DNA of 17,639 nt. Source: Gloeobacterales cyanobacterium. GTDB taxonomy: Bacteria > Cyanobacteriota > Cyanobacteriia > Gloeobacterales > PMM-0068. Position numbers and translations under genes: made by a program. The number at the start of each line of letters is the position of its first letter. Position 1 is the first letter of the stretch. The DNA is taken from positions 1 to 17,639 of the forward strand of contig JBBRSB010000046.1 of NCBI GenBank assembly GCA_038245785.1, read 5' to 3'. The notes beneath the pieces are model-generated. The model was not told where the DNA came from and searched no databases. It saw nothing but the letters and a program-made list of their open reading frames with translations. Below, piece by piece: positions 430-15,744 of this stretch.

Positions 430-1602
430 CTAGGTAGGATTTTGGTTAACCAAAATCCCTTTATCTCGCTTTATAGCAGTAACCAATAAAGCTAAGCGAA
501 TAACAGCAGATAAAGTAATAGTTACTCTAAAAAGTATCCTTCCAGCCAATTCTCTGTTTCTCATGTCATAAGCAATGGGAAAGTAGAAAAATGCAACCCA
601 AGAAAAGGCAACTGTAAGTTTTCTTATTAAAAGAGATTCTGAAAACACAGCAATTGGAATAATCCACAAGAAGTATTGTGGTGAATAAAAGACAGAGAAT
701 GTAATAAAGCCTACAATTGCTATTAGAAAAGCATCAACTAAAGATTCAAATGTTTTTGGCTTTTTCAATACTGGCAGCAAAGAAGAAGAGATTTGTAGAA
801 GCGGAGGCAATCCAGGAAAAATAGTAGCAATCCAACTCAGGCGAAATACGTCGTATGTACTTTCACCATTTGGTCCCCGCATACCATGAAAGGCATAGGG
901 AGCTAAAAGACCTTGCAGGCCAGCGTAAAGAAGCACCATCAAGTTGCCTGCAAGAAAAGGTATAAAGCAAATTATAGTATTCGTGATAACAGCTTTAATG
1001 CCTCGTTTATAAAAGATGAATATACAGTAAGAAGGAAGTAAGAATATAGCATAACCCTTCAAAGCAATTGTTATTCCAAGCCAAATTGACCCTCTTGTGT
1101 ACTTTTCATCACGAATTGCCATTAGAGCAAGCAGTGTTGTAACAGATGGGTAGATGTCAAACCTGAATAGAGCAAAGTAGACTGAGGCAGGAGCTATCCA
1201 AAGCCAGAGAGAGTTTCTTGACACCTTAGTGTAGGTTATAAATATGGCAAAAAGGTAGAGTAAAAAGCTAGTAGATGTCCAAACAAATGAAAAACTTTCT
1301 ATATCAGATGGAAAAGGATGAGTTACCTTGGCAACAAGCCGACAATACCCAAAAATCAAGTTGGCTAGTAATGGATATTCAGAAAAAACGTCTTTGTATA
1401 GTATTCCTTCTCCAACGATCCATCGACTTGATTGAAAGTAGACATTAATGTCAAAATCATCAAATAGTAGCCTAATTCCGAAGGGTCGGTGAAAGAACAA
1501 AAAATCCCAGGCTAAGTACATACCAATCAAACTTATGATTATAAAGGGAGCAAGTATATATGTTAGCTTTTCTCTAAAAGGGTTATTTTGGAATAGCCTC
1601 AT
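430..1602 (-). CDS. Multi-pass membrane glycosyltransferase, GT-C fold (GT87/DUF2029-like)
   Basis: 390 aa with many hydrophobic segments. Motifs DDFDINVY, LYKDVFSEYPLLA, FRFDIYP, GITIALKGY and VFYSPQYFLW are typical of GT87/DUF2029 lipid-sugar-dependent transferases. Confidence 0.75.
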   Translation of the reverse strand: MRLFQNNPFREKLTYILAPFIIISLIGMYLAWDFLFFHRPFGIRLLFDDFDINVYFQSSRWIVGEGILYKDVFSEYPLLANLIFGYCRLVAKVTHPFPSDIESFSFVWTSTSFLLYLFAIFITYTKVSRNSLWLWIAPASVYFALFRFDIYPSVTTLLALMAIRDEKYTRGSIWLGITIALKGYAIFLLPSYCIFIFYKRGIKAVITNTIICFIPFLAGNLMVLLYAGLQGLLAPYAFHGMRGPNGESTYDVFRLSWIATIFPGLPPLLQISSSLLPVLKKPKTFESLVDAFLIAIVGFITFSVFYSPQYFLWIIPIAVFSESLLIRKLTVAFSWVAFFYFPIAYDMRNRELAGRILFRVTITLSAVIRLALLVTAIKRDKGILVNQNPT

Positions 1603-3143: not shown

Positions 3144-4067
3144 ATGGCGCTCGACTGTTCTCACTGTAGTTCCCGTAATTTAGATGATGCACAGTTTTGT
3201 AGCAACTGCAAAGCGCCCCTTACCCAAATCCTCTACACCTTGCCTACGAGAACCCTTTTAGCTCAGGGGCAGTATCGAATTGATGCTGTTCTGGGCGAAG
3301 GTGCTTTTGGCATTACCTACAAGGGCATGGACCTGTCCAAGAACCAGCCTGTAGCAATTAAAGAACTTTTTCCCCATGGAGCTATCCGCCAAGGTCAAGG
3401 CTTCTTATTACCCAACAATCTTGATAACGCCGGGTTTATGGAACTATGTGAGCAATTCACCGTTGAAGGAAATTGTCTTAGTCAATTGAATGACCCTCAT
3501 ATCGTGAAAGTTCTAGCCCGTTTTAAAGAAAACGGCACCTTGTATACGGTCATGGAGTTTGTAGAAGGCCGGACCCTTCATCGTCTGGTCAAGGCGCGGG
3601 GGCCGCTGGAAGACAAGATCGTCCTCAACTATCTACGGCAAATCGGACGTGCCCTCTCCAAAGTTCATCAGCAGGGCTTTGTCCATCGAGATGTTAAACC
3701 CACCAATATCTTAGTGAATGCTGACCACCATGTAACCTTGATTGACTTCGGGTCTGCGTGGGCAATCGGTCAACCTGCGCCAAAGAGGGTGCTCACGCCT
3801 GGTTTTGCCCCTCCAGAACAATATATAGACAACACAGGCTACCCTGCCCTGGATGTCTACGCCCTCGCAAGCACAGGCTATTTTGCCCTCACGGGCCATA
3901 CTCCCATTCCCTCCCGCGACCGTTTGGAAGGACAGAAACTTTTGCCCTTCCAGCTATCGAATAAGCTCGTCACGGCCAGCACAGAGATGTTGATACTGAA
4001 AGGCATGGCCCTCAGCCCAGAGAACCGCTCGAAGAGCATTGGTCACTTTTTAGGAGCCCTAGTTTAG
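3144..4067 (+). CDS. Hanks-type Ser/Thr protein kinase with N-terminal Zn-ribbon
   Basis: CSHC...CSNC ribbon. Kinase motifs LGEGAFG, VAIKE, HRDVKPTN, DFG, TPGFAPPEQ and DVYALA are all intact. Confidence 0.93.
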   Translation: MALDCSHCSSRNLDDAQFCSNCKAPLTQILYTLPTRTLLAQGQYRIDAVLGEGAFGITYKGMDLSKNQPVAIKELFPHGAIRQGQGFLLPNNLDNAGFMELCEQFTVEGNCLSQLNDPHIVKVLARFKENGTLYTVMEFVEGRTLHRLVKARGPLEDKIVLNYLRQIGRALSKVHQQGFVHRDVKPTNILVNADHHVTLIDFGSAWAIGQPAPKRVLTPGFAPPEQYIDNTGYPALDVYALASTGYFALTGHTPIPSRDRLEGQKLLPFQLSNKLVTASTEMLILKGMALSPENRSKSIGHFLGALV

Positions 4068-4069
4068 AT

Positions 4070-5104
4070 TTACTGAGGGTCCACAGGGCAGGCAACCCCC
4101 GGAGAACAGATATTTCGGGCATAAGTTGTAGCACTGAACAAAAGCTGAGTAGCTGTTTTGGCTTTAGTGGCAGCATCTGCGTCGCTTTGAACGATATCTA
4201 CGCTGCCCTGGACTGAAACGGTAACTGATTGTGGATTAGTGGGTGCGTTAGCAATACGCACGGAATTCGCAGTGGCCAGATAGTCTGATACAGCCGCACC
4301 AGCTCCAAGGACAGGAGGGGTTAATACCCAAACATTAACCGCAGCAGCATTTAGAGACTTATTCTTCGACTGGCTGGACGCCGGAATACTACTCTCACTA
4401 GTACTGCCTGAGTAACCAAAATCATCAAAGGGAATCGGAACAGGGCCTGACTCCCAACGGTACAAAACTCTAGGACCCTTGAACGTACTTGTTGGTGTAG
4501 TAGTGTAGTAAACAACAAATTTGTAAGCAGGGACTGAACCGGAAGTACCGTAGGCAACTAAATTACAAATACTAGAGCTGCCCGTGGGACTACTTTCATC
4601 AAATGGAGCATTGTTCAATTTTGCTGAAGGAACTGCTAAAAACTCACCCTGAGGAATGGTGCTATAAGGGGAACATCCTGGTTCTGTAGACTTAGTGGAG
4701 CGTATCCAAAAAGCAAGTTCAATTTTGGCATTAGTTTTATTAACTAAATTTGCAATAGAGATATCAGCTCCTGTGTTGCTTGAAGCACCCTTGTCTTCAA
4801 TGATTGCATCATTGCCTGCCTCAAATCCTGTAGAACCTTGCCGAAGCCAAGCGGTACAATATACGTCAGCAGGACATACAACATCATTCTGACGATAGAT
4901 GTATCGTGCTTGCCTCAGATCTGTATTGATATAACTGACTGCTCCCTGCACATCCCCCTGTACATCACTGGTGGAAACATTTTTGACAGCACCACGAGAA
5001 AAATTGATCAGGATAAGCCCTAAGGATGTACTGAGTATTCCTGTCATTACACCTGTTACAAGGAGTTCTGCAAGCGTGACTCCTCTTGCTCTTCTGAGAT
5101 TCAT
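4070..5104 (-). CDS. Type IV minor pilin, PilW/PulJ-like
   Basis: Class III signal RRARG|VTLAELLV with E at +5 and a hydrophobic helix; later INTDLRQA, typical of PilW/PulJ-like pilins. ATGA overlap with the upstream gene. Confidence 0.8.
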   Translation of the reverse strand: MNLRRARGVTLAELLVTGVMTGILSTSLGLILINFSRGAVKNVSTSDVQGDVQGAVSYINTDLRQARYIYRQNDVVCPADVYCTAWLRQGSTGFEAGNDAIIEDKGASSNTGADISIANLVNKTNAKIELAFWIRSTKSTEPGCSPYSTIPQGEFLAVPSAKLNNAPFDESSPTGSSSICNLVAYGTSGSVPAYKFVVYYTTTPTSTFKGPRVLYRWESGPVPIPFDDFGYSGSTSESSIPASSQSKNKSLNAAAVNVWVLTPPVLGAGAAVSDYLATANSVRIANAPTNPQSVTVSVQGSVDIVQSDADAATKAKTATQLLFSATTYARNICSPGVACPVDPQ

Positions 5105-5649
5105 TGCACAGTCCTTACTTTGCCAAGCACAGTAGAAATTACTACTGCTTTACATGTTCGAGCCGTTTCACAAGCAGTGCGCCCTGCATCACTATCTAAG
5201 TAGTTGGTATTATCCATCATTAGGTAGACGGTGCGCAGTTGACCGACATTAGAAATTTCGCCTCGGAAATTAAATTTTGTGCGAAATGGAACGACTCCAT
5301 TTGTTTGAAGATTGATGTTATTAGGTAAGTTTTGCTCTTGTTTAAGAGTTGCAGCATTCCATTCCACCTCATCATTATTGCCATCATTAGTATCATCATT
5401 GTCATTTTCATAAATTCGGATTTTATTGTTAGGAGAAGGAAAAAACTGAATAGTCATGGAACGTGATTTGGATATGGCAAGCTGACGAGCATTTCGAATG
5501 GATTGAGCGATACTTTGCTGTGCTAAGCCTAGATTTTGTTGTTGAACTTGACCAGCAATACTAGCCCCTGCAACCGTAGCCATGATCCCAGTCATAGCCA
5601 CAACCACCAGGAGTTCAATTAATGAAAAACCACTTGCATTATTTCTCAT
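5101..5649 (-). CDS. Type IV minor pilin, FimT/GspH-like
   Basis: MRNNASG|FSLIELLVVVAM prepilin motif; SIRNARQLAISK, FNFRGEI and C-terminal ISTVLGKVR match the FimT/GspH pattern. Confidence 0.85.
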   Translation of the reverse strand: MRNNASGFSLIELLVVVAMTGIMATVAGASIAGQVQQQNLGLAQQSIAQSIRNARQLAISKSRSMTIQFFPSPNNKIRIYENDNDDTNDGNNDEVEWNAATLKQEQNLPNNINLQTNGVVPFRTKFNFRGEISNVGQLRTVYLMMDNTNYLDSDAGRTACETARTCKAVVISTVLGKVRTVQ

Positions 5650-6434
5650 GTCGGCTCCGCAATATCAGCGGTGAGGACAACCAAGGCTGCTCTATTGTCT
5701 AGGGCTGAAGCATCCCCAGTGAAAACAGGCAAAGCAGTCTGAGTTGTTGCACCTGTAGGTAGACAGTTCGCAGGTGTGGTGACACAAGCAGGAGCACAGT
5801 TTGCTCCTGTACATGTTGTTCCAGCACCCACTGCTCTATAGATGCGTACTACAACACGGCGGGAACTATTAGGCGTAAGGTCAGCAGCCCCATCTCCATC
5901 ATTATCTTGATCTCCCCAGAAAAGCTGCGCGATAAAGCGCACAGGCTTACTTTTATTTACAGCAGCTTCAGAATCTCTATATATACAGGAAGCACCTGAA
6001 GTAATTGTTGTAGTCACCAAATTTTCTTGTATTGCATAATTAACAATGCCCGCGTCATTGACCGGAACATCATTATGATTGGTAAGGAGCACTTTTGTAA
6101 CCTGTTTAGGTCTAGCGCTCGTAACTTTCAAACTACAGTCATCTTTATCTATTTCTCCAAATAAAGGTAGCAAACCTGGAGTGTAGTTCACTGCTCTGTT
6201 TACAGCAGAACCTGGATTGAGCTGAGACCAGTAACGGCGGCTTTCCTCCAGTTGAATCTGAGCTAAATCAGTGGCCTCAGCAATAAGTTGCTGTTGCTGG
6301 CGTAGCAGAGAAGCTCCGGTTGCTAAGGGCAGTAAACCGACAGCAAAGATGGAAAAAACCACAATGGCCACCAAGATTTCTACTAGAGTTAGCCCTTGAA
6401 CACCCCGTTTGTTAGAGAGTTGTTTAGTGACCAT
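5646..6434 (-). CDS. Type IV minor pilin, PilV/PulI-like
   Basis: Start placed at ATG 6434 behind a GGAGCAGGAG RBS. KRGVQG|LTLVEILVAIVV prepilin motif; ATDLAQIQLEE is characteristic of PilV-like pilins. Confidence 0.8.
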   Translation of the reverse strand: MVTKQLSNKRGVQGLTLVEILVAIVVFSIFAVGLLPLATGASLLRQQQQLIAEATDLAQIQLEESRRYWSQLNPGSAVNRAVNYTPGLLPLFGEIDKDDCSLKVTSARPKQVTKVLLTNHNDVPVNDAGIVNYAIQENLVTTTITSGASCIYRDSEAAVNKSKPVRFIAQLFWGDQDNDGDGAADLTPNSSRRVVVRIYRAVGAGTTCTGANCAPACVTTPANCLPTGATTQTALPVFTGDASALDNRAALVVLTADIAEPT

Positions 6435-6894
6435 GTGCTCCTGCTCCGTACTTACCATAGTCAATGCGTATTTTCATAGATTCAGGCAATTGCTCAACAT
6501 CCTGCTGCGAGATGAACCAATTAGCACCAAAGCTCGTAGTAACTACGTATCCATCACCCTGAGGAGTTGCTGAGTTGATCTCTGAGGGAAGAAGCATGCC
6601 AAGCGCTTTTGGATCTGGCGGTGTTGGCTGAGTAATTTCAGGCGCTAGAGATGCTATGCCAGGAGAGGCCGCAGATGGAACTGTTGTTTCAGAAGTTCCT
6701 GGAGAAGAAATTGCGTTAGGAGAAGTAGTTCCAGACTTATCCAATGCCAGTGGAGGCGTTACTAGAGTTGAGTTGCTACTTACGTTCGCAGGCTTACTGG
6801 TTGACACAGACACCAAGAGCAATAAGAAGACAGCAACTGAAACGATAGCTCCTGAAATTAAAAATGGTTGAGTATTATTCTTCTTGACACGCAT
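6424..6894 (-). CDS. Hypothetical membrane-anchored protein with Ser/Pro/Thr linker
   Basis: AAGGAG RBS, basic N-terminus plus one hydrophobic helix, low-complexity linker and a ~55-aa C-terminal domain. Fills the gap between two pilin genes and overlaps the next start. Confidence 0.7.
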   Translation of the reverse strand: MRVKKNNTQPFLISGAIVSVAVFLLLLVSVSTSKPANVSSNSTLVTPPLALDKSGTTSPNAISSPGTSETTVPSAASPGIASLAPEITQPTPPDPKALGMLLPSEINSATPQGDGYVVTTSFGANWFISQQDVEQLPESMKIRIDYGKYGAGAHGH

Positions 6895-6907: not shown

Positions 6908-9625
6908 TTAGAACGTACGGTCGGCAGATGTGCCCAATCTAAAGAAAGTGACAGTACCTACAGGTATATTGCCCAGCGGAGACTTGTAATAAGTCATGCG
7001 GTCATCATAGTTAACCTGCATACCTGTACCGTCTGTATTAGCGTCATTACTGGCTTTATCTTTTCCATAGTCCAAGCCGTTGCAATAGTTATTAGGTTTG
7101 CCTGCCAATGTGGCAAATGCAGTTGAGCAATTGGCCGGAGCAGTTTTACCATTTTTAGAGCTTTCTACGGCGGTGGCTAGGATACCGAATTCCTTAGTTA
7201 CAAATCCACCATTAGCCATTAAGTTAGTACCTCGGACGACCCCTGCAATACGTCGATTGGCATAAACATAGCTATCTATACGCTCTACTTGATTGGCCAG
7301 TCTGGCATTGACTTTGTCGTAGGATGAGGTACTGTTTGGGTCTCCATAGTCATACAACACACCGGGCACATGTTGGTTTTCTGTAGTGTAGGTAGCAGGA
7401 GGGTTATTGGTGGTAGTGGTAGATGACGTCTTTGTCGCTACTAACTTTCCTTTTGAAAGTTTGTATGTAGTAGTTTCTGTAACAGTGGTGATAGCGCTAG
7501 TCTCACTAACATTAACAGCAAGACCAGCTTGTGATGTTACTTTTGTTGTTTTTGTAGTTGCTGTTACTTTCGTATCTACTTGACTGGTTGTGCTTGGAGC
7601 ACCAACAGTGCTAGTGGTAACAACTGGTGCAGAGGTAGTGGTAGTTGTTACAGGAGTAGTTTTGTCATCTGCGGAGTCAGCAGAGACAGTGTTACTTGCA
7701 TCAATAAAACTACTACCCCCGCGCACCGTAACTTTATCGGTCTGGTCTTGGACTCCAAGGATATTCCGGAATTCTTTGTCTGTAAGAGACTTTTTAAAAG
7801 TTCCGTCACTTGCTACGCTACCAGGCTTGATAATGTAGTCATAGGCCGATACAGAATCTTTGGTAACTACATCAGAGCCGTAAACAGTAGCTCCCGTTAT
7901 TGATTTATAGTCACATGCTGTTCCTACTGCCTGCACTGGTGGTCCAGGTAGAGCAACTGTATTTTTAACACACGTTAATTCTTCGCCAGATCCTTTCTTA
8001 AAGTACCGGGGAGCTGGGATTATACCAAAATTTGTGTTCCCATCTAGTCCAAACTGCTGTCTAATAAAAGTTTCAGGTTGGCGAAATGCATTATCCAGGC
8101 CATTGCTAGCACTAAGAGCATCTGTATAGCTAGCCGCATCATTCTGGTTCGTATAATCTCCAACGACAGCATTACCAGCAGCGAAGATCCTTAGTGAGTC
8201 TTTACTGGTTAACTCTTCTCGCGCCTTAGAATCTTTAGCAGCAGAGGTAGTCAAGTCATTATAGTTGCCTCTTCCAGACGTGCCAGGAGCATTTTTATAG
8301 AGCACTTCTCCAGCGACATATACATTCCGACTTGCAGTTATATTCCCATTCCCACTGACATAGCCCTTGATAATGACGTCTCCATTGAAGTAGAAATTAT
8401 CAGGCAGGACGATTGGGTCACCTTTAGTTCCCACGAGAATTAAAGTACCCGCTTTATCTGAGTCTGAAAGAGTTGTTTTTTGTTGTAAATCACTACCATA
8501 AGTACCATTAGGAGGAATTACATACATGCCTCCTTTCAAACCAGACGTCGTGAGGTCTGCCTGCGCATATTTATCTGGCTTGTCATAACCACCAGCGCTC
8601 ACCGTGACGCTCTTGCCTGCACTATCTCCCTGTGCCTTGGCTAAATCTACGGGGGGGATATCATTATTAATTCCATCGCCATCCAGGTCTCCCGCTGTTT
8701 TTACTGGATTGAATTTATCTCCATCATATTTCTCTTGGACGTTAGGAGTTCCACCATCGGGGTCAGTGATAGCGACTCCATTTAAATTCGCTAGCTTTGT
8801 GTTGGGTTGCGTATTATTGGTGCTGGTATCGTCGGTAAAACGCTGTAGACCAAGCATACTGCCTGCGATTCTGGTATCACCCCTCGCAGCATTTGTGCCT
8901 CTTTTTACTCCATCCCCGACACAACCATTGGCAGCCCCAGCTCTCTCGTCATAACCTACGTCGGTACAACTACTCTTGGCGTCCCAACCTGGTCGCACAT
9001 GGGAGAGGGCTCCTGTATCACCATTGATCTGTACATGACAAAAAGCACAGTTGATATTACGGGTCAAAATAGCAAATAGCGGTGCTCCTGTTCCAGATGT
9101 AGCAGCAAATCCTTTTACAACCGTTTGTTCACTACCATCTGGTAAGACGGCTGTCGCTTTTATAGTAAAAGTACCGGCTGGATTGGAAGCGTATACCCTT
9201 GACCGGACTACTACGTTTCCTCCACCTCTAGAGCTGTAGATATTAGCAAATCGATTGTCTAAGCTAATGAGATTTGCTGTATTTGTCTTAACGTCTGCAG
9301 TAGTGGCAGTTAACCCAGCATCAGTACCCGCACCATTATCAAGCGAAGTAACTGTACGTGTTCCAGACGTAATTAGATTTACCCACGCCGTGGTGGATTG
9401 GCCAGAGGTTCTTTGGTCTTTAAGATATTCATTACGAACATACTCAGCTGCACTATCAGCGGTTTGAAAAGCTGCCGTGACTCCTCTTTCTTGAACTGTT
9501 CGGTTTGAAAGTTGGCTAGAGACTAAAAAAGTAGAAGCACCGATCGCCGCTAAGATAACCCCTAAAAGGATAACGGTAAAAAGCGTTGCTCCGCGTTCTG
9601 AACGATTTTTATGCTTTCCCTTCAT
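6908..9625 (-). CDS. Large PilX/GspK-like pilin-anchored protein (putative pilus tip protein/adhesin)
   Basis: RSERG|ATLFTVILLG class III signal lacking E5, as in PilX/GspK. AAFQTADSAAEY fits the PilX N-terminal pattern. Long Gly/Thr/Asp/Asn-rich extracellular body; first gene of the minor pilin operon. Confidence 0.75.
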   Translation of the reverse strand: MKGKHKNRSERGATLFTVILLGVILAAIGASTFLVSSQLSNRTVQERGVTAAFQTADSAAEYVRNEYLKDQRTSGQSTTAWVNLITSGTRTVTSLDNGAGTDAGLTATTADVKTNTANLISLDNRFANIYSSRGGGNVVVRSRVYASNPAGTFTIKATAVLPDGSEQTVVKGFAATSGTGAPLFAILTRNINCAFCHVQINGDTGALSHVRPGWDAKSSCTDVGYDERAGAANGCVGDGVKRGTNAARGDTRIAGSMLGLQRFTDDTSTNNTQPNTKLANLNGVAITDPDGGTPNVQEKYDGDKFNPVKTAGDLDGDGINNDIPPVDLAKAQGDSAGKSVTVSAGGYDKPDKYAQADLTTSGLKGGMYVIPPNGTYGSDLQQKTTLSDSDKAGTLILVGTKGDPIVLPDNFYFNGDVIIKGYVSGNGNITASRNVYVAGEVLYKNAPGTSGRGNYNDLTTSAAKDSKAREELTSKDSLRIFAAGNAVVGDYTNQNDAASYTDALSASNGLDNAFRQPETFIRQQFGLDGNTNFGIIPAPRYFKKGSGEELTCVKNTVALPGPPVQAVGTACDYKSITGATVYGSDVVTKDSVSAYDYIIKPGSVASDGTFKKSLTDKEFRNILGVQDQTDKVTVRGGSSFIDASNTVSADSADDKTTPVTTTTTSAPVVTTSTVGAPSTTSQVDTKVTATTKTTKVTSQAGLAVNVSETSAITTVTETTTYKLSKGKLVATKTSSTTTTNNPPATYTTENQHVPGVLYDYGDPNSTSSYDKVNARLANQVERIDSYVYANRRIAGVVRGTNLMANGGFVTKEFGILATAVESSKNGKTAPANCSTAFATLAGKPNNYCNGLDYGKDKASNDANTDGTGMQVNYDDRMTYYKSPLGNIPVGTVTFFRLGTSADRTF

Positions 9626-11997: not shown

Positions 11998-13515
11998 CTA
12001 AGCAGCTTTGAAACCTTTCTTGAAGTCATTGAGCGCTTTTTCCAAGATCTTAGGAGCATCGGTACCCTTGAGATCTTGACCCGCTTCCACAATCTCTACA
12101 TAGCCCTTGGCATTCTGGTTGATGTACTGCAGAAACTCTTTCTTGAATTGAGTAACATGCTTTACTTCAACATCATCAAGGAAGCCATTGCTCGCAGCGT
12201 AGATAATCGCTACTTGCTCATAAACTTTTAGGGGAGAATATTGAGGCTGCTTGAGGATCTCTTGCAAGCGCTGACCACGGGCTAGTTGAGCTTGGGTTGC
12301 TTTATCCAAGTCAGAAGCGAACTGAGAGAAAGCTTGCAGTTCGTTGTACTGAGCCAGTTCCAAACGCAGCTGACCGGCAACCCGCTTCATCGCCTTGGTT
12401 TGTGCCGCTCCACCGACCCGAGATACGGAAATACCGGCGTTGATGGCCGGACGAATTCCAGAGTTAAACAAGTCAGCTTCTAGGAAGATTTGACCATCAG
12501 TAATCGATATAACATTGGTTGGGATGTAGGCTGATACGTCACCAGCCTGCGTTTCAATAATCGGCAGCGCAGTCATCGAACCACCACCTAAGGCATCACT
12601 TAGTTTGGCAGCCCGCTCCAAAAGACGAGAGTGAAGATAGAAGACGTCTCCAGGATAAGCTTCACGACCGGGAGGACGACGGAGGAGCAAGGACATTTGG
12701 CGATAGGCCACTGCTTGCTTAGAAAGGTCATCATAAACAATCAGTACGGGTTTGCCTTCATACATGAAGTGCTCACCGATCGTAGCGCCTGTGTACGGAG
12801 CGAAAAACTGCAGGGCTGCAGGGTCAGAAGCATTGGCAGCAACCATGATCGTGTATTCCATCGCACCACGATCTTCTAGGACAGAGCGGATCTGTGCCAC
12901 CGTAGAAGCTTTCTGACCAACGGCTACATAGATACAGATAACACCGGTGCCTTTCTGGTTGAGGATGGTATCAACAGCAACGGTTGTTTTACCGGTTTGA
13001 CGGTCTCCAATAATCAATTCCCGCTGGCCCCGTCCGACAGGAATCATGGCGTCAATAGCGGTAATTCCGGTTTGCATCGGCTCACACACGGACTTGCGGC
13101 TGATGATCCCAGGAGCCATCGACTCTAAAAGTCTGGTCTTTGAGGTACGAACCTCACCTTTGCCGTCGATGGGACGTCCGATTCCGTCTACCACCCGACC
13201 AATCATTTCATCGCCTACAGGTACTTCCGCAACCTTGCCTGTGGCTCTAACGGTAGAACCTTCTTGAATCTTGAAACCTGTACCCAGAAGTACAACGCCG
13301 ACGTTATCTTCTTCCAGGTTGAGCGCAACCCCTAGGGTGCCATCTTCGAATTCTAGCAATTCTTGAGCCATGGCCTTTTCTAGACCGTAAACCCGCGCAA
13401 TCCCGTCCCCGACCTGGAGTACGGTTCCGACATTGGATACCTGTAGCTCCTGGTTATAACCGGCAATTTGTTGCTTGATAATGCTGCTGATTTCATCCGG
13501 ACGGATGCTAACCAT
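11998..13515 (-). CDS. atpA: F1 ATP synthase subunit alpha
   Basis: [13 protein letters not shown] start, Walker [44 protein letters not shown]. Confidence 0.99.
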
Positions 13516-14011: not shown

Positions 14012-14080
14012 AATTCTTTGAGAGGCACAAACATTTTCCACAATTTGTATCCTGGAAGTAAGGCAAGAAGGAGAGAGGCG

Positions 14081-14311
14081 ATGACCATAACGGTTAAGGC
14101 AATTTATGAACATGGGATTCTCCGGCCAATAGAACCCATTTCTTTAGTCGAGGGAACTCGTGTTGAAGTGACTGTCATAGTTCCTGCATCTGAGCCTGTA
14201 GAAAAGACACCTGCAGAGATTCCTGCTGCGATCGCCGCTATGCCTATAGAAGGTAGCGAAGAAAAATTCTCGGCTCAAGACCACGACCGTGTTCTCTATA
14301 CTCAGCCATAA
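14081..14311 (+). CDS. Antitoxin, AF2212/DUF104-like
   Basis: Start at ATG 14081 after AGGAGAGAGG. VKAIYEHGILRPIEPISLVEGTRVEV is the DUF104 signature; lies 5 nt upstream of a PIN gene. Confidence 0.85.
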   Translation: MTITVKAIYEHGILRPIEPISLVEGTRVEVTVIVPASEPVEKTPAEIPAAIAAMPIEGSEEKFSAQDHDRVLYTQP

Positions 14312-14316
14312 AAGTA

Positions 14317-14712
14317 ATGATCTTCGTGGATACGGGTGCTTGGTTCGCTAGTGTAGTGCCTTCAGACTCCGATCACCGTGCAGCCTCTTCATGGATGCGC
14401 CAAAATACCCAGCCGTTATTGACTACAGACTACGTGGTAGATGAAACACCCACACTACTGAGAATGCGCAAGGAAGTGCAGAGAGCCATTGTTCTGGGGG
14501 AAGCATTCTTTTCCGGTAAGCTGGCTACTCTTTACTATCTGACAGAGGAAGATACCCAACAGACATGGCAAGTATTTCGTCAGTTTTCAGACAAAAACTG
14601 GAGTTTCACAGACTGTTCAAGCAAAGTTATTATCGAAAGGCATAAGCTGACTCAGGCATTCGCTTTTGATCATCACTTCCGACAGTTTGGCTCTGTTAGC
14701 GTTGTCCCTTGA
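14317..14712 (+). CDS. vapC: VapC-type PIN domain toxin
   Basis: IFVDTGAW, YVVDET, SFTDCSS and AFAFDHHF: the acidic PIN active-site residues are present. Confidence 0.9.
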   Translation: MIFVDTGAWFASVVPSDSDHRAASSWMRQNTQPLLTTDYVVDETPTLLRMRKEVQRAIVLGEAFFSGKLATLYYLTEEDTQQTWQVFRQFSDKNWSFTDCSSKVIIERHKLTQAFAFDHHFRQFGSVSVVP

Positions 14713-15595: not shown

Positions 15596-15616
15596 CCGGA
15601 TCTAACTAACTAAATA

Positions 15617-15712
15617 GCCAGAGACCACAGGAGCCAGAGGCTTAATCATCCTGTAGAGGCACCAGAAGAGAGCAATCTCTTCTTCGCGGACTCTGGCATG
15701 CTAGGGTCCGCT
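15617..15712 (+). promoter_or_regulatory. Ribosomal protein L10 leader
   Basis: CCAGAGACCACAGG...CTTAA...CCTGTAGAGG core, followed by hairpins GAAGAGA/TCTCTTC and CGGACTCTGGC/GCTAGGGTCCG, located between rplA and rplJ. Confidence 0.8.
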
Positions 15713-15744
15713 CATTTTATATCTGTAAAGGAGGTGAAAACCGA

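Follow-up and report, generated by a model that had tools for sequence, protein, structure and literature searches.

Conservation of a CxxCH Motif in a PilX-Type Pilin of a Gloeobacterales Cyanobacterium Suggests a Possible Heme c at a Type IV Pilus Tip

We analyzed a 17,639-nucleotide stretch of DNA (the window; contig JBBRSB010000046.1 of assembly GCA_038245785.1) from an early-branching cyanobacterium of the Gloeobacterales and found that a CxxCH motif, the form of site to which heme c is attached, has been kept almost without exception among distant relatives of P0001, a PilX-type prepilin with an inserted β-solenoid that is encoded in the window and predicted to be a type IV pilus tip subunit. 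Taking all uses of such a cofactor together, we lean toward the interpretation that heme c is covalently attached at this motif. The narrower proposal, that the heme serves as a folding and redox or ligand-binding cofactor of a specialized pilus tip rather than as part of an electron wire, we regard as evenly poised between right and wrong.

Conservation of the CxxCH triad

The minus-strand codons TGT GCT TTT TGT CAT spell C193-A-F-C196-H197 within an open reading frame (ORF) of 905 codons (Table 1), which bears out the motif that an initial sequence-only reading of the window had reported. With 8 Cys and 4 His residues in the protein, the chance of such a motif arising in P0001 is about 2.7e-4, and CxxCH is present in 32 of the 3811 ORFs of at least 150 amino acids in the genome.

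Relatives were pooled from several searches, one of which gave 763 representatives at an E value of 1e-3 or better (the best 150 being listed), and the resulting 350 sequences were reduced to 209 by removing those with fewer than 250 profile columns or more than 70% identity. These comprise 136 sequences with CxxCH, one with CxxCK (P0071), a Cys-free sister group of 51, and 21 that do not cover the site or start inside it. The sequence-only reading had made invariance of all three residues among homologs the test of its proposal, and this invariance extends well past close relatives: at a median identity of 25%, the motif group (n = 137) has both Cys residues in 137 of 137 members and the His in 136 of 137. 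When the 20 members that came from scans with the motif in the search pattern are set aside, 116 His and 1 Lys remain among 117. The motif columns are on par with the core Gly and Asp of the solenoid as the best kept of 520 columns; within them, the xx pair takes 26 different forms among the 137 members, and both codons are used at each motif site in 59 loci. Lys is an alternative heme ligand in NrfA, and by analogy the sole replacement of the His, by a residue that can ligate heme, may be counted in favor of heme.

The other Cys pairs come and go in relatives while the triad stays, and 15 of the 137 motif-group members have no other Cys at all. P0001 itself has six further Cys residues (220, 235, 552, 571, 833, and 848), and Cys 552 and Cys 571 are jointly absent from relatives P0002, P0003, and P0014, as expected for a disulfide pair. 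The position that begins the turn is Asn in 85, Asp in 23, and Ser in 10 of the 137 members, a pattern resembling a helix N-cap. In the sister group, the site is occupied by an aromatic loop. The two Cys positions mostly hold Trp (in 34 of 51 members) and Gly (in 33 of 51), and the position of the His is free (Asn 10, Gly 9, and Asp 6 of 51). A FastTree phylogeny of 188 sequences, built with the motif columns removed, shows a single change of state and places the motif group in one clade (support 0.775), so that the motif appears to be one ancient feature long kept rather than a repeated gain.

The sequence-only reading also named His209 and Met257 as candidate distal ligands. Both are present in P0001, but neither is conserved, with His in 19 of 79 and Met in 2 of 79 sequences of an alignment picked from motif-bearing matches, the counts of which therefore serve this purpose only, and both candidates were rejected. 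No evident sixth ligand was seen in the partner pilins or in the small membrane protein encoded at the locus, in which no His is conserved and Met columns reach 23 of 32 and 14 of 32 in PilW and 15 of 35 in the small protein.

Predicted fold and cellular location

An AlphaFold2 model of P0001 built from 79 sequences (predicted local distance difference test score 79, predicted template modeling score 0.77) contains a pilin helix at residues 8 to 74, a pilin sheet at 139 to 174, a β-solenoid at 178 to 879, and a last strand at 892 to 897. The motif lies directly past the strands of the pilin domain, as the sequence-only reading had it, in a turn between strands 186 to 188 and 198 to 201 with a one-turn helix at 192 to 195. 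The top Foldseek match of the model is ComZ of Thermus (6QVI, E 7e-5). With VIA-align, ComZ gives Z 11.7 (root mean square deviation [RMSD] 10.7, 340 residues aligned), ice-binding solenoids give Z 11.4 to 12.0 over residues 178 to 879, and GspK gives Z 8.3. Structural matches to pilins and GspK reach residue 900, and the solenoid is predicted to be inserted ahead of the last pilin strand.

A model of the compact relative P0130 (413 amino acids, no pilin domain; predicted local distance difference test score 87) places the motif in a loop at residues 63 to 69 and superposes on the solenoid of ComZ with Z 17.5 (RMSD 3.2, 229 aligned). ComZ is the best structural match for both models, and both put the motif into the connection from the first to the second solenoid strand, that is, in a turn or loop rather than in a strand. 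Fold and gene context uphold the PilX-type identity given to the protein at the outset, and the models predict a tip pilin of ComZ-like build. From that fold and context, we infer that P0001 is located at the pilus tip and primes pilus assembly.

P0001 has a single N-terminal anchor of the prepilin type, which has a lipoprotein-like signal as its counterpart in some relatives, and Gly12 at the predicted cleavage site is kept in 99% of the motif clade. This topology suggests that export of the prepilin brings the motif to the periplasmic face of the membrane, in agreement with the sequence-only reading.

Searches of Pfam and NCBIfam, cytochrome families included, gave no significant match for P0001, and a protein atlas search returned hypothetical, PilX_N, and DUF4900 clusters only, with matches below 0.9 for P0130. 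A sequence match to the thiosulfate dehydrogenase TsdA (E 0.08) was set aside as resting on the motif alone.

Capacity of the genome for heme attachment

The sequence-only reading pointed to CcsA/CcsB as the cyanobacterial maturation system, and ccsB and ccsA were indeed found adjacent to each other on contig C23 of the same genome, with DsbD/CcdA-family genes on contig C17. Among ORFs with a hydrophobic N terminus, 17 of 57 CxxC occurrences have His as the next residue, compared with 20 of 421 elsewhere in the genome, and seven of the eight other exported-looking CxxCH proteins (those with a hydrophobic N terminus) match cytochrome c families, the exception being on contig C31. CcsBA ligates heme to CXXCH peptides of 9 to 20 residues, with both thiols and the His required (PMC8112865), and an exported location together with a motif conserved in homologues is a criterion for accepting monoheme candidates (PMC4429474).

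Two exported-looking single-CxxCH proteins of this genome without a cytochrome match, at C2:268649-269941 and C31:35863-38574 (Big_5 and DUF4082 domains), are possibly further unusual heme c proteins.

Heme, disulfide, or metal site

The strongest competitor, to which we give a substantial though clearly smaller likelihood, is that a short disulfide between C193 and C196 has a structural role, capping the first rung of the solenoid, with H197 serving in packing or hydrogen bonding, and that the protein is a heme-free, ComZ-like adhesin or receptor. Several observations that weigh against heme bear on this alternative. Trp and Gly at the Cys positions of the sister group fit equally well with a buried disulfide having been lost and with a heme space filled by aromatic residues. 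Besides the motif, no His, Met, or Cys column reaches 50% in the 137 sequences, and no distal His, Met, or Cys is conserved in the head domains of the partner pilins. The genome encodes a VKOR disulfide-forming protein, such that disulfides can form, and the family has other disulfide-like pairs. The motif arose once on the tree, so by the phylogeny the conservation of the triad amounts to a single long-kept event, and the fold relatives found are non-heme solenoids: ComZ and ice-binding proteins are the top matches in the fold lists searched, and no heme protein is present among the listed rows for either model, judged by titles.

Further points count against heme in their own right. The models were read as secondary structure, a reading outside which side-chain directions and a heme pocket lie. 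The flanks of the retrieved loci contain no maturation gene of the WWD type and no cytochrome that recurs, and co-occurrence with the maturation system is uninformative, since PF01578 is present in 53 of 53 Planctomycetota carriers tested, with the motif or without it; another co-occurrence check, with 4 of 4, has as little power. Thioredoxin-type proteins are frequent exported false positives in CxxCH searches (PMC4429474), and by analogy an exported, conserved CxxC(H) in P0001 need not carry heme. As for a thioredoxin identity of P0001 itself, the protein has no Pfam match and both models are solenoids, in fold lists that are not exhaustive.

What tells against the disulfide is that the His is kept in 136 of 137 motif-group proteins at a position that is free in the sister group, and that the other Cys pairs of the family are volatile. 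Moreover, CcsBA needs no more than an exported CXXCH as its substrate in vitro (PMC8112865), so staying heme-free would require fast folding or oxidation.

Coordination of a metal (Zn, Cu, or Fe) by the two Cys and the His, or a redox-active thiol pair at the motif, seems to us unlikely: Cys and His are metal ligands, and an N-cap-like residue opens the turn, but there is no second conserved CxxC or His to complete a site, the predicted fold is a solenoid, and outside the cytoplasm metal sites with thiolate ligands are not common. Least probable of all is a heme that serves as the terminal electron carrier of the pilus for mineral reduction or iron uptake, which could draw on all of the evidence for heme attachment and on a NapC/NirT-type multiheme protein encoded elsewhere in the genome but would have to work with one heme per subunit, three other pilins in the window that lack a heme motif, and carriers of unrelated lifestyles. 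The metal reduction or iron acquisition role suggested by the sequence-only reading finds no backing in the locus, with no cytochrome or iron-uptake gene recurring in the flanks.

Returning to heme c as a cofactor of the tip itself, we infer the following series of steps beyond what sequence and gene content give directly. The prepilin would be exported with the motif facing the periplasm, where the general CcsBA synthase would attach heme to C193 and C196 before folding, with H197 as the axial ligand, and PilD would cleave after Gly12. The holo-protein would then join PilV, FimT, and PilW in priming and capping one of the pilus types of the cell, of which there would be at least two. The heme would be placed at the end of the solenoid nearest the pilin domain, its sixth site open or closed by a partner; as no sixth ligand is conserved, the iron may have five ligands, or water or a partner may complete its coordination. 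The state of the heme (heme supply; O2, NO, or peroxide; redox) could decide whether the tip folds, assembles, or sticks.

Relation to known pilins and c-type cytochromes

P0001 shares with ComZ of Thermus thermophilus (6QVI; PMC6561018) a pilin fold, a large β-solenoid before the last strand, and adjoining minor pilins. The tip position of ComZ has been argued on steric grounds, and ComZ binds DNA (PMC6561018). ComZ is without CxxCH, unlike P0001. In an hhalign comparison with a close relative of ComZ, only the N-terminal helix aligns (63 N-terminal columns), and no PDB sequence match of P0001 to 6QVI was found. Set by eye against the ComZ sequence, C193 falls on a Trp and C196-H197 on a Gly-Gly turn, a register that hhalign did not confirm. 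In one genome (G457), a ComZ-like gene and a motif-bearing gene occur as two separate genes, and this coexistence indicates that the P0001 family is a subfamily different from ComZ.

The cyanobacterial PilX-Com and PilX-EPS (HpsA) proteins are likewise PilX proteins with a triangular solenoid, clustered with FimT, PilV, and PilW, and have been proposed as a pilus cap that replaces PilY1 (PMC13759059). Each of two Gloeobacter species is given there, in a table, a PilW-FimT-PilW cluster without PilX (PMC13759059). The main text of that paper contains none of the words heme, CxxC, cytochrome, and Gloeobacter, and that of the ComZ paper (PMC6561018) does not contain heme, although the figures of both could still show the motif.

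TfcP of Myxococcus xanthus ties a CxxCH heme c to a minor-pilin cluster, with a role in folding or stabilization rather than in electron transfer (PMC8833165), and may by analogy serve as a precedent for a heme c of that kind in such a cluster. TfcP is, however, a soluble cytochrome c in its own right, which has a distal Cys and is located in the periplasm rather than in the pilus (PMC8833165), whereas in P0001 the motif is inside a pilin-anchored solenoid, with no third conserved Cys and no conserved distal ligand. With class I and multiheme c-type cytochromes, P0001 has in common an exported and conserved CxxCH, a free xx pair, and maturation genes in the genome; it differs from them in having no cytochrome match in Pfam or NCBIfam, a β-solenoid fold, and no conserved sixth ligand. 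A conserved distal His, Met, or Cys is usual in c-type cytochromes but not universal.

We found no description of a CxxCH-bearing pilin in the openly accessible literature, subscription papers being outside the scope of the search. Should heme prove to be attached, the type IV pilus would have a structural subunit that is itself a c-type hemoprotein, and none of the heme proteins returned by the searches shows such a fold; the subunit would represent a third PilX class beside the two described for cyanobacteria, couple the priming of the pilus to redox state and to the supply of heme, and offer a chemical handle on surface or gas sensing. If only a disulfide is present, P0001 would still belong to an undescribed PilX subfamily, of modest interest.

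Distribution of the family

The nearest named records to P0001 are from a Gloeobacterales metagenome-assembled genome (MAG; 67%) and Anthocerotibacter panamensis (P0016; 34%), the latter a cultured carrier. Of 14 genomes from the order to which the window belongs, 10 were seen to have the motif, and the family profile found nothing in 300 other sampled cyanobacterial genomes. The best 30 loci from the 251 genomes of the phylum that includes the Trueperaceae record are all motif bearing. In the Planctomycetota, 54 of 301 genomes were matched, and the 30 loci retrieved comprise 21 with the motif and 9 of the sister group. Motif-bearing members are also present in Hydrogenedentes and Methylomirabilales.

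About 10 relatives have no pilin domain and consist of a lipoprotein-like N terminus, a linker, and the CxxCH solenoid alone; because the motif is kept in them, it belongs to the solenoid module. Relatives of this kind include P0088, P0118, P0130, P0136, P0151, P0155, and P0162.

These findings allow the more speculative, and in our view rather doubtful, extension that there is a widespread and undescribed family of β-solenoid c-type hemoproteins, acting as pilus tip subunits (in Gloeobacterales, Deinococcota, Planctomycetota, Hydrogenedentes, and Methylomirabilales) or as surface lipoproteins, in which an open five-coordinate heme would, where contact is made, act as a sensor of gases, peroxide, or redox-active surfaces or react with them and which, among cyanobacteria, would have survived only in the thylakoid-less lineage. 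Gloeobacterales are described as being without thylakoids (PMC13174344), and the confinement of the family, within cyanobacteria, to a lineage that carries out heme ligation and pilin export at the same membrane is just one coincidence, to be taken as no more than a lead.

The motif-bearing gene has been duplicated in several genomes. A Gloeobacterales MAG has two whole cassettes in tandem (L001:4661-13439), and Planctomycetota MAGs (L003:7455-15004; L004) have three or four tandem motif-bearing pilX paralogues.

The pilin cluster and other features of the window

The genes of the cluster follow the order pilX-(small membrane gene)-pilV-fimT-pilW, all on the minus strand of a Gloeobacterales-like genome (Table 1), and FimT, PilV, and PilW minor pilins accompany the motif-bearing pilX both here and recurrently at the loci of relatives. 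A scan of the locus for promoters and terminators gave results at or below the shuffle level. Elsewhere, the genome encodes PilD, five T2SSE-family ATPases, and a second pilX-pilV-fimT set that is without the motif (contig C33; L183:508-3829).

Table 1. Features of P0001 and of the genes clustered with it, in window coordinates
Feature	Positions	Strand	Basis
PilX-type prepilin with inserted β-solenoid (P0001), predicted pilus priming/tip subunit	6908..9625	-	Sequence, model, ComZ 6QVI best match
CxxCH C193-A-F-C196-H197, turn at first solenoid rung	9035..9049	-	Sequence, models, conservation
Predicted prepilin cleavage after Gly12 (before ATLFT; no Glu5) and hydrophobic N-terminal helix	9521..9592	-	Sequence; helix 8-74 in model
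β-Solenoid, residues ~178-879, ComZ/DUF3494-like	6989..9094	-	Structural alignment
Acidic loop D313-D322, possible calcium site	8660..8689	-	Pattern count in relatives
Thr-rich long-stranded insertion, ~residues 645-755	7361..7693	-	Model, alignment of relatives
156-amino-acid protein: one membrane anchor, low-complexity linker, ~55-residue C-terminal domain, no known family	6424..6894	-	ORF, Pfam search
PilV-like minor pilin	5646..6464	-	PF07963 N_methyl E 4e-6; weak ComGE/HpsB/GspI matches
FimT/GspH-like minor pilin	5101..5649	-	PF07963 and PF12019; TIGR01708 E 1e-10, below cutoff
PilW/HpsC-like minor pilin	4070..5104	-	NF038304 HpsC E 6e-10, below cutoff; prepilin-type N terminus

The acidic loop of P0001 is of the DxDxDG type, and the pattern D-x-[DN]-x-[DN]-G is found in 66 of 137 members of the motif clade and 23 of 51 members of the sister group. 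The Thr-rich insertion is variable among close relatives, only some of which have it, and is mostly missing in P0007 to P0013; it is modeled as very long strands, and the fold matches it gives to pore-forming proteins seem to reflect nothing more than long hairpins.

The gene for the 156-residue protein has counterparts directly downstream of a motif-bearing pilX at 6 Gloeobacterales and 34 Deinococcota loci (about 40 in all, another example being L002:9776-10177) and is not found behind the motif-bearing pilX in family f41 or at Planctomycetota loci. Two of the 19 members of this protein group match BapA_N weakly (E 0.0013). The protein is possibly a folding or assembly helper.

Outside the cluster, a zinc-ribbon Ser/Thr kinase gene (3144-4067, plus strand) is convergent with the pilin genes and is placed in the same way at a Gloeobacterales MAG locus (L001). 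At 11998-13515 (minus strand) is a gene that is atpA-like in sequence appearance and has no other ATP synthase genes adjoining it, again as in L001. A small gene pair at 14018-14712 (plus strand) looks by eye like an antitoxin and a PIN-domain protein, and an Rfam L10 leader lies ahead of rplJ at 15600-15726 (plus strand). Finally, a gene at 430-1602 (minus strand), within a low-GC stretch (0.37-0.39), encodes a 390-residue multipass membrane protein without a Pfam match that by eye resembles a membrane glycosyltransferase.

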